This document shows positions 58,237 to 64,000 of a stretch of DNA of 64,000 bases, piece by piece (positions within the stretch are counted from its first letter, which is position 1; each line of letters starts with the position of its first letter). Origin of the DNA: Candidatus Heimdallarchaeota archaeon. Its GTDB lineage: Archaea; Asgardarchaeota; Heimdallarchaeia; Heimdallarchaeales; Heimdallarchaeaceae. Below the pieces are notes generated by a model, which worked only from the letters and a program-made list of their open reading frames with translations, was not told the origin of the DNA and did not search any database. Where the stretch lies: NCBI GenBank assembly GCA_018238545.1, contig JABCTC010000013.1:18233-82232 (forward strand), in the 5' to 3' direction. A program made the position numbers and the translations under genes.

Positions 58237-61200
58237 ATGTGTGCCATCAAAAATCGTATTAGTTATTTCACAATTTTCATATTGCTTACAGCTTATCTGC
58301 TTTGTTCTGTTAGTTTGACACCCTCAGTATTAGATACATCTGCTAATACGCAAACACCTATTATTAACGATGAAATCATTTACATTTATAACATATCAGA
58401 TACTAGGCAAGAGTTCAAATTAACAAACAAAAATCTAGACTTGGGAAGGTTCAACAATTTATCACTAGTATTTGAAATTTCAGGCGAAAAAACTGACGTA
58501 AATGGAATTGAAGTATCATTCACAATCAATTCAACGAAGATTGATTTCATTCTTACGAAATACTATCAAAATAGCGGAGTACAGGTCTTATCTCAAGCTT
58601 TTGAATATCCAAATGAGATTACTGGATCAATGAACTTAACCATTACATGCAAGGCTAAAGTGTTTTCAGGAGGTACTGGTACACTACGAATAATAAATTC
58701 AACATTAATCGAGAAATTAACAATACCTGAAATCCAAAGCAATAAGAAAATAATACCCACATATCCCAATTGGTTGATTTTTGAAGGCTATGCTTTTGGT
58801 GAAAAAAATAGAACTGTAAAAACCGCGTTTCTAAATTCGAAGGAAAACCAGAGTCTTAATCTTTCTGTTTTTTTTGTATTCAATGATATCCAAGCAATCT
58901 CAAAAAAGTTAATTTTTGAAATAAACAGCGAAATAGTGGATATTAGGGAATTTGAGGTTGGGGCTAATTTACTAATCTTTCACAATATCAAAATAGAACA
59001 AGGATTTAACCTTATACGGTGTTACTTTAGTTTTCAATACTGCAATGGTTTAATTGAAATTAATGATATAAGTTTCATAGGAAATTCATACACGCTGTTG
59101 GATTTTCTTCCTTCTAATTCTTACGATTGGGTTTATTGGAGGGGAGATGGATTAAATCATTCAATTGATTTATCGACACTAAAACCGCAAAGCGATAATA
59201 GAGATCAGAAAATATGGTTCTATTTAGATTTTGGCTGTTTGGGAACAATAATCTCACCTTCAATTCATTACGAAATCCATGATGGATATAGAAAACTCTG
59301 TGAAGGCTACATTTCAGAACAGTCCCAAAAACAATCATCTAGCTATATTATCGAACATACATGGACTTCATTCTATGATACCCAATTGAAGATATGGCTT
59401 TATGGTCTTGCGGAAGGAGAAGGAGTCTTTTATTTATTGAATACAAGTAGAATTGAGATAGAATCTATTCCTGAAATAACAACAGAGACCTATGAGGATA
59501 TTCTGATTGAAGAAGAGGAAATCAAGACTCCACTGTTAAGTTATTACGAAATTTGTATATTAGAGCGCTTTTTTTTTAATAATTCTGAAAAAATACAATA
59601 TAGTTTTTTCTTAATATTTGATTTCATTAGGAGAGACCATGAAAGTATCAGTTATATTAAAGTTGAAGTTTATGAAGGAAACTTCCTGTTAATTGAAGAT
59701 ACTGTTGATAGACAAGGAAAAACTAATCTCACCGCCTCATTTTCTGCAAAAAAAGTTAACACTTTTGTGAATATTACACTATTAATATTTGGAGCTGGAA
59801 ATACAATAATAATTCGAGATATGTATATTCAAATTAAACTCTTTGAGGAAGAACAAAAGACAAATAATGAAGATAATTCAAGTGTTAATTTTCTCAGAGA
59901 TAAATGGATTCTGCAAGGCATTTTGTTGTTTTATCAAATTTCAATGTTATCGTTTTTAGTTCTTCAAGAACTAAGAAGAAGAAGCAAATATATTTATGAA
60001 CTGGGAGTTAAGGAGTTACTAATAAACATACTTCATTCGATAAAATATAAGAAGAAACAACCTCTCATTCTTACTTTGAAATTCATTAGTTTCATAATCC
60101 CGTTTACAACCACTTACTTCTTATTAAAAGAATTCAATTATTTGACTTCTTCATTAAGTCGAATATTTTGCTCAATGTTTTGTGGATATAGTTTCTTTAC
60201 TTTAATGGATTTGTTTACATATAGAATAGGTAAAAAAAGCCGAAATTTTTTATTGAAAGGTACAACAATTAAAAAGAAAAAAAATGCACTAAAAGTATAT
60301 GAAAAAATAAGAAACTGGTTGGCTATATCGAAAAAAAGAAGGCAAAGAACAATTTTGATTGTTGGGGTGCTTACACATCTTATATCTATAAATTTCGTTA
60401 TGAATTTTTTATTGAATCACTCCATATTAGGGGATTATTATTTTCATGTAAAGTGCATTGATTGTATTGCTTGGGGGATGAATCTGTCTATGTTTGGGAT
60501 ATTTCTTTCGATTTTTCCTTGTTTTTTTATCATTAAACTTGGTTTTAATATGATTTTCTTCGAAGACAATATTATAAAATCCCTGCTATTAGGATTGTTA
60601 GTGTTATCAACACTGTTCTTTTCTTGGGGTGTATTTCTTTATTTTATCATAATAAACAAGTCTTACTTAGACTCAAACATTCATTCAATTCTTTGGACAC
60701 TCGCAATGCCAGTGGGTTTCGCTTTCTTGTTAGGAATTGTGTACAGGTTAGGAAAGAGCAAAGCAAAAGAGCTTAACATTACATTCCTTTCTCTACTAAA
60801 ATGTGGTAAATTTACTGTAAATCAAGAAGAAATAACCCAAGCTTTTCAGAATGGTAATTCATCGAGAATGGATTATCAGAAAGTTCAGGATGATGTTCAT
60901 AGAGAAGTGTTATATCATTCAATTCAGAAGAATCTTGTATTAAATTCATCAATATCTTTTAAGGGTCTTTCAAGAATTGCAAATGTACCTGAGAGTAAGA
61001 TTGAAGGATTGCTCGCAGATATTCTAGATGAAATTCCGAATATTGGAATCATTGATTTATCAAATAACGCCTTTACATTAAAGAAAATTGGATCAGATAA
61101 TATTTTCAGCTTAAATAGAGGTTTGGCTAAGAGGGATGTAGCTAATAGCAACAAAGGTCAAATGAGCATTGATTTAGGACCCATCAAATTTGAGGAAATT

Positions 61201-64000: not shown

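Follow-up and report, generated by a model that had tools for sequence, protein, structure and literature searches.

A 64,000-nucleotide stretch of a Candidatus Heimdallarchaeota archaeon genome (assembly GCA_018238545.1, contig JABCTC010000013.1, positions 18,233 to 82,232 of the forward strand; hereafter the window) ends within a giant gene whose product is predicted to join a receptor-like front half to a putative nuclease tail. The gene occupies 58237-63999 on the plus strand as one open frame of 1921 codons. As a preliminary description of the sequence had reported, no stop codon precedes the end of the window, which is also the end of contig C4 of the source genome (G000). The final 92 codons of this copy are found on another contig, C74, where an intron-containing tRNA-Lys(CTT) (transfer RNA, tRNA) starts 84 bp past the gene end. 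The whole length is known from a complete ortholog (P0001; 2268 amino acids (aa), 93% identical), so that about 255 codons of the source copy are missing in the assembly gap between C4 and C74. The ortholog lies unbroken on a 91-kb contig, and the ratio of nonsynonymous to synonymous divergence (dN/dS) of the tail is 0.16-0.28 in most pairings of three orthologs. On these grounds we reject a chimeric assembly, about which the preliminary description had been cautious; a dead open reading frame was likewise rejected, and both the front half and the tail are under purifying selection. The ortholog in genome G022 carries a TAG at codon 406, which may be an assembly error because a frameshifted gene of G022, of class C below, is intact in an independent assembly (P0005); pseudogene calls resting on single metagenome-assembled genomes are uncertain. 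The parts of the locus are as follows, where empty alleles are those of related genomes that lack the gene and the chassis is the part of the protein up to the winged helix.

57616-58089, minus strand: left host flank, gene for a 157-aa membrane protein, from gene comparison with empty alleles
58152-58173, plus strand: element resembling a transcription factor B recognition element (BRE) and TATA box, now before the giant gene, from alignment with the empty alleles of G019, G014 and G026; putative promoter
58237-58335, plus strand: signal peptide or N-terminal hydrophobic segment, aa 1-33, from hydropathy; common to the family
58336-59904, plus strand: ectodomain, aa 34-556, beta-rich, with internal repeat modules and 14 sequons
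59905-60753, plus strand: seven transmembrane (TM) helices, aa 557-839, with the C-terminus predicted inside
60883-61086, plus strand: PCI-like winged helix, aa ~883-950, from a weak Pfam PCI match and all-versus-all comparison
61087-61503, plus strand: variable linker, the zone of exchange between chassis and tail in paralogs, from identity breakpoints of paralog pairs
61504-61857, plus strand: putative PD-(D/E)xK core, aa 1090-1207, with E1106, D1147 (61675), E1161 (61717) and K1163 (61723)
61858-64000, plus strand: long basic C-terminal extension, aa 1208-2268 in the ortholog, with no known domain

The front half of the protein has the features of a surface receptor. Behind the hydrophobic N-terminal segment, the ectodomain carries more than twice the sequons expected (14 versus 6.2, P ~0.001); the tail shows no enrichment (8 versus 9.2). 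Two of its internal repeats, B and B', align with an HHalign probability of 95%, and Pfam and PDB searches with the ectodomain gave no match. The seven hydrophobic segments are followed by loops of very uneven charge: lysines and arginines number 9 after TM1, 16 after TM3 and 5 after TM7, one each after TM2, TM4 and TM6, and none in the loop after TM5. By the positive-inside rule, this fits an N-out/C-in topology with the tail facing the cytoplasm. The preliminary description had proposed each of these elements, namely the N-terminal signal, a beta-rich ectodomain with about 14 sequons, seven segments with basic loops after TM1, TM3 and TM7, a cytoplasmic tail of more than 1000 aa and a PCI/winged-helix-like segment, and all of them held up. 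The count of segments is odd, as a C-terminus inside demands, and the match of the winged helix to Pfam PCI is weak (E 0.03). This winged helix is common to the long-tailed members of the family and is the last chassis element before the zone in which tails are swapped. Pfam gave no match to a G protein-coupled receptor or 7TMR-DISM seven-helix bundle, and many paralogs have just five helices; nor was there a Pfam match to a kinase or KEN domain in the giant protein.

The tail contains a putative nuclease core. The PD-(D/E)xK fold has an alpha-beta-beta-beta-alpha core with the aspartate on the second strand and the (D/E)xK on the third, and a signature of this kind had been read from the translated sequence. 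The residues are where they had been placed (D1147, E1161 and K1163, with E1106 as the helix glutamate), and the fold, itself unconfirmed, is likely, a judgement drawn mostly from the family context described below. Two AlphaFold2 runs, one on aa 870-1700 as a single sequence (predicted local distance difference test (pLDDT) 33) and one on aa 1090-1207 with a motif-anchored 12-row alignment (pLDDT 37), both put the aspartate at the start of the second strand and the ExK at the end of the third, with helices on either side. Shape searches with the pLDDT 37 model (Foldseek, VIA, Atlas) returned chance-level matches only and are uninformative either way. With ESM Atlas language-model features of aa 1085-1215 (recognition 2350), all named neighbours were of PD-(D/E)xK type, with scores of 0.79-0.82. 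The three motif residues are identical in three orthologs, which at 85-93% identity carries little information; the corresponding motif residues are invariant in the paralogous tail classes C/E and D, neither detectably homologous to this tail.

Sequence searches with the full query against Pfam, NCBIfam, PHROGs, PADLOC and PDB found nothing significant, and phmmer with the tail against 1.84 billion representatives matched a single protein, P0002. The gene of this distant homolog overlaps the end of a tRNA-Val gene with its own 3' end. No tail of this class, termed class A, was found in metagenome and viral scans. Helicase or methyltransferase content was rejected for the tail (Walker A absent, a single chance NPPF), and the C-terminal extension may serve as a target-recognition region. 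As a separate observation, a chimera in G022 (L079:1450-2853, contig C413) joins the N-terminus of a membrane protein in frame to the C-terminus of a class A-like tail and reads into the antisense strand of tRNA-Val.

The locus exists in filled, empty and decayed states. Across the genus, the tRNA-Lys site is empty in 16 genomes, filled in three (G000, G021 and G022) and decayed in one (G023), whose remnant has eight stops. In empty alleles, the start of the 157-aa gene lies ~110-210 bp from tRNA-Lys; this gene is itself decayed in G026. The insert sits between the BRE/TATA-like element of tRNA-Lys (window 58152) and the tRNA, beginning ~10 bp beyond the element, so that the element ahead of tRNA-Lys in empty alleles now stands before the giant gene. 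Every filled allele has a new TATA-like box, brought by the insert, and a 32-nt intron in the D-arm of the tRNA, both absent from the nearest empty alleles; two distant empty genomes also have the 32-nt intron. More generally, close relatives differ widely in where the intron of tRNA-Lys(CTT) lies (D-arm, anticodon loop, both or none; L155-L183).

Divergence at this locus points to lateral spread, because the giant gene is less diverged between G000 and G021 than host genes are (synonymous divergence (dS) 0.21 versus a median of 0.57 for 19 other genes); a paralog with a single TM helix has a dS of 0.59 in the same comparison. G026 is nearer to G000 (median dS 0.40), yet its site is empty. A class D paralog has a dS of 0.73 against a background of 0.34, and low dS is therefore not a trait of these AT-rich genes. 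In G021, the left flank recurs as a diverged second copy directly ahead of the giant gene. Taken together, these genomic comparisons indicate that the cassette moved laterally with pieces of both flanks; the dS and flank evidence demonstrate transfer, not its cause. The neighbours of the giant gene are housekeeping genes. Further upstream, at 54665-55596, the window contains a Roadblock protein and small GTPase pair (MglB/MglA-like) beside FEN1, PIMT and Cdc48, ordinary Asgard content.

The giant protein belongs to a family in which one chassis is combined with several unrelated tails. The ectodomain chassis is present in 27 of 29 Heimdallarchaeaceae genomes, often in multiple copies, and in none of the 16 other genomes of the order. 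Members other than the giant gene have about 5-7 TM helices or one. The single-TM form (610 aa) keeps a conserved locus and diverges like host genes; the multi-TM forms end in a zinc ribbon, in RING-H2 (E 8e-9), or in the winged helix and a tail of 600-1700 aa. These long tails fall into mutually unrelated classes: A (the giant gene), B, a second LAGLIDADG type, C/E, D and one without class. Class B tails contain AbrB-like repeats and two LAGLIDADG motifs with the acidic residue intact, and the second type matches Pfam LAGLIDADG_2 (E 2e-19). In class C/E, the D of the D..ExK motif is present in 34/34 sequences, the K in at least 31 and the E/D in at least 28; in class D, the 1006 alignment columns contain just four invariant charged residues, and the motif D and K account for two of them. 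Among the classes, C and E alone align in profile comparison (E 0.001).

Different tails are borne by chassis 76-85% identical to each other. In two paralog pairs, identity stops where chassis and tail are exchanged (at aa 935 in C102/L034 and at aa 909 in L048/L050), and ectodomain trees reject the monophyly of tail classes (p values of the approximately unbiased test: B 7e-42, C 3e-7, D 1e-61). Fusions recur over many chassis clades and tail classes, each time right behind the winged helix. Several members were observed in settings of their own. One (L056:5997-12764) has a 1350-aa tail without a match to other classes and without a clear motif. Others combine chassis, zinc ribbon and RING-H2 in a membrane E3-ligase-like arrangement (L041:8142-10859, L043, L051, L061, L065, L070), and several of these adjoin a TnpB-like gene near tRNA-Cys; two of the RING-H2-tailed members have internal deletions. 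Chassis genes also have recurrent partners (L039, L053, L054, L055, L056, L057, L058, L066, L092; L001, L050, L062, L085): for many, an upstream, divergent secreted protein of ~390 aa from a beta-helix-like cluster, and for others an S8 peptidase with a 225-aa secreted protein nearby.

Such modularity could also serve a membrane-tethered one-component regulator, in which a domesticated endonuclease-fold tail binds DNA near an essential neighbour (tRNA, glmS, ribosomal RNA (rRNA)) and regulates that neighbour in response to a surface cue; WhiA and ToxR/CadC are conceptual parallels. The AbrB-like repeats of class B, the winged helix of long members, RING outputs indicative of a signalling chassis and purifying selection on all parts agree with this reading. 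We nevertheless consider it improbable: residues of catalytic type are kept across classes, and the gene is missing from most close relatives, being gained and lost at its site.

Tails of the family also exist without a chassis. Classes B, C and E occur as soluble genes, and the soluble relatives of the other tail classes measure about 500-960 aa. The source genome has five chassis-less tails, two intact (834 and 906 aa) and three remnants, at C8:57207-59711, C45:1611-4331, C86:7865-10143, C34:5759-8629 and C52:574-951; three copies are of C/E type, including one remnant. The start of the C34 tail is 97% identical to a G021 tail whose chassis matches C102 of the source genome. Tails keep to particular chromosomal sites. 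Class B faces the glmS 3' end in 14/14 cases with an assembled 3' neighbour, whether fused or free, in three genera; the glmS site is empty in the source genome. In 6 genomes, and under three chassis clades, the class C tails linked to a chassis face the 3' end of 16S rRNA. Some soluble genes stop 6-9 bp from the 3' end of tRNA(CAT), other soluble subfamilies lie between duplicated ends of tRNA-Leu, fumarase or oligopeptidase F genes, and the ppdK site is occupied by two different tails. tRNA-Lys follows the giant gene, and host genes or rRNA follow most other members. The host site is thus constant for class B, for class C and for each soluble subfamily, while the chassis in front of the tails changes.

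Further observations concern class C and its sites. Two loci hold nested copies of the 16S rRNA 3' end (L042:940-1094, 4663-4790; L053:219-332, 8100-8159, 10622-10731) together with the end of an older class C tail, which suggests repeated insertion at one site. A soluble class C-type gene at the tRNA(CAT) site (L137, G079:C238:802-3585) lies on a 6-kb contig of a genome from another order and reflects either cross-order transfer or misbinning. No class C tail was found in a viral scan. Genome G002 encodes a 4628-aa protein (L131/L132, C38 ~192057-205943) with a signal peptide, a very large stretch rich in beta structure, hydrophobic helices around aa 3300-3600 and a terminal class C-type D..ExK tail; it is a second carrier of this nuclease, unrelated to the chassis, and is possibly related to the aloposon giants discussed below.

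The occurrence of the same tails with and without a chassis bears on the idea of a passive fusion, in which a cargo chassis gene upstream of a resident nuclease was joined to it by deletion and the halves act independently, be it as a surface protein hitchhiking on a homing gene or as a nuclease parked at the membrane. Classes B, C and E have soluble versions, those of class B at the same site as its fused forms, and broken and remnant copies are frequent. Taking its variants jointly, we give this idea very little credence: the junction falls just behind the winged helix in many chassis clades and tail classes, and selection purifies both halves.

A role in defence would use the same modularity differently. 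The ectodomain would detect virions or the machinery of incoming DNA, and the tail would destroy the nucleic acid of the invader or the host, acting by abortive infection or as a restriction system at the membrane. Defence genes typically swap effectors on a fixed sensor, are patchily distributed, move laterally and decay. Type I restriction-like genes directly follow one class D gene, and the class C nuclease at the end of the unrelated 4628-aa membrane-associated protein suggests that tethering is useful. On the other hand, PADLOC 2.0 (library dated 2023) gave no system match for the giant gene, and the one family member with a match hit a homing-endonuclease model. The effectors found are nuclease-type folds and RING alone, with TIR, SIR2 and pore-formers not found; strict coupling of tails to sites is unexpected of a defence system, and the neighbours of the giant gene are housekeeping genes. 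LAGLIDADG is a rare-cutter fold. Because cells tolerate soluble relatives that have intact motifs and no partners, and because LAGLIDADG enzymes cut rarely, defence and toxin roles are disfavoured, and we regard a defence function as unlikely.

The toxin version, in which the tail kills non-kin after contact or cell fusion (contact-dependent or allorecognition killing), is less probable still. A conserved N-terminus with a variable C-terminal nuclease, orphan tails elsewhere in the genome and the giant secreted carrier of a class C-type tail recall such toxins. However, the tail is predicted to lie in the producer's own cytoplasm: the odd TM count, the positive-inside rule and the zinc-binding RING of paralogs point there, and export is not indicated. 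No conserved small gene that could confer immunity was seen downstream at any locus, and we reject a classical toxin-immunity pair; downstream orphan cassettes were missing too, and no methyltransferase partner was seen. With immunity genes unseen and tails tied to chromosomal sites, the abortive infection, contact toxicity and IRE1-like signalling that the preliminary description had offered as examples are not favoured.

Building on the modularity of the family, the site coupling in other classes, the empty alleles and the lateral transfer, we favour the reading that the giant gene encodes a site-specific endonuclease of homing type, joined to a surface receptor by which it is tethered or gated, and give this reading a probability of roughly 45%. 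Residues 1-950 would be the Heimdallarchaeaceae surface-receptor chassis, and aa ~1090-2268 a large site-specific PD-(D/E)xK homing-type endonuclease with the 5' end of the tRNA-Lys gene as its home site. The tail would cut the empty allele near the junction of promoter and tRNA, and repair templated by the filled allele would copy the cassette together with the 5' half of the tRNA. Homing requires an empty allele in the same cell (PMC3943268, PMC2790892). The chassis may keep the nuclease at the membrane and license its activity solely when a surface cue signals, for example, that a related cell is in contact or exchanging DNA; the cue would thereby provide timing, since contact or DNA exchange is when an empty allele becomes available. 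A single-chain sensor coupled to nucleic-acid cleavage had been proposed from the window. Its architecture, a receptor with a cytoplasmic nuclease, stands, mainly through the family, because paralogs bear LAGLIDADG domains or motifs or an invariant D..ExK at the same place in the chain; control of cleavage by a cue is what we infer.

Several points weigh against this reading. Gating of the nuclease by the ectodomain is pure inference, and RING-tailed members show that signalling by the chassis need not involve DNA cleavage. The homing endonucleases known so far are small and soluble, and defence genes are likewise patchy, mobile and linked to tRNAs. Shuffling a tail yields the loose D..(D/E)xK pattern about once, which makes the motif alone weak evidence; the class A core models poorly (pLDDT 33-37) and has no fold match, and profile comparison gives no link between class A and classes B-E, hence no detectable homology to the other D..ExK classes. 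The coupling of tails to sites could arise if tails are physically linked to a homology arm and inherited vertically. The source genome contains at least 13 small inserts between diverged duplications of host gene ends (45-213 bp), mostly without a recognisable integrase or nuclease, and inserts of this kind are a general insertion mode of the lineage. In a genome-wide control, 11 of 13 inserts were flanked by duplicated host gene ends without a nuclease. Duplicated ends also surround nuclease-free inserts and are therefore evidence of insertion, not of its motor; we rejected them as proof of nuclease-driven insertion.

A bolder version extends the favoured reading to the whole family. Heimdallarchaeaceae sensors may switch on a tethered site-specific endonuclease upon contact or DNA exchange and act as receptor-gated gene drives, with a link to the RING-tailed members included; each would spread itself and nearby surface-protein cargo at tRNA, rRNA and glmS ends. 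We hold this to be possible but rather doubtful. If it is true, the chassis with RING output would link conflict among mobile elements to the origin of transmembrane signalling near eukaryotes. Even sensor gating by itself would be a new link of cell contact with gene flow in a lineage close to eukaryotes. On any of these readings, a single Asgard receptor chassis samples outputs that are unrelated to one another (zinc ribbon, RING E3-like, LAGLIDADG and several PD-(D/E)xK-like), and a large uncatalogued set of putative site-specific nucleases of 500-1400 aa comes to light. Empty alleles reveal their candidate targets (glmS, 16S rRNA, tRNA ends), so the idea can be tested in vitro without culturing the host; nucleases with long targets may also serve as tools. 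In searches of the open-access literature, no glycosylated multi-pass receptor joined to a homing-type endonuclease was found described.

Among known systems, IRE1/RNase L and ToxR/CadC-type sensors couple extracytoplasmic sensing across the membrane to a domain acting on nucleic acid, and the giant protein may be analogous in pairing an outside sensor with a predicted domain of this kind. An IRE1-type receptor nuclease has a single TM helix with kinase and KEN RNase domains; unlike IRE1/RNase L, the giant protein is multi-pass (7 TM), with kinase and KEN undetected, putative folds of DNA-endonuclease type and high mobility. Polymorphic toxins (Rhs, CdiA, MafB) undergo C-terminal displacement (PMC2935791). 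The family shares with them a constant N-terminal carrier, exchanged C-terminal nuclease domains and orphan tails; it differs in that the tail is predicted in the producer's cytoplasm, measures 600-1700 aa and is tied to sites, with no immunity gene seen.

Hosts of the same family have two further systems, as described in a study of Ca. Heimdallarchaeum (Wu et al. 2022, PMC8813620). Aloposons contain giant genes upstream of tRNA sites, with tandem genes of 3000-6000 aa and four upstream genes including MinD/ParA; the present locus has neither the tandem giant genes nor the MinD/ParA block, and we rejected aloposon identity accordingly. HeimM2 carries a homing-endonuclease homolog between 16S rRNA and a tRNA, which has been proposed to be co-opted for integration; among precedents for a homing nuclease at a 16S/tRNA site, HeimM2 comes closest. 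The nuclease described here differs in being part of the membrane protein itself, and the accessible text of the study contains no receptor-nuclease fusion (PMC8813620).

The closest likeness is to free-standing homing endonucleases, which include phage T4 MobE (PMC2790892) and enzymes of the LAGLIDADG and PD-(D/E)xK families, among them I-Ssp6803I (PMC3943268). Like these, the giant gene lies beside a conserved host gene, has present and absent alleles, decays and bears signs of lateral transfer with co-transferred flanks, with no immunity gene seen, and the same two fold families recur, PD-(D/E)xK as a putative fold. Free-standing homing endonucleases are small and soluble; the giant protein is a 2268-aa multi-pass membrane protein, and the family's nucleases have an extension of 600-1100 aa and follow, within one chain, a glycosylated ectodomain, 5-7 TM helices and a winged helix. 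Size and solubility apart, the giant gene would, to judge from its genomic behaviour, work most like a free-standing homing endonuclease.

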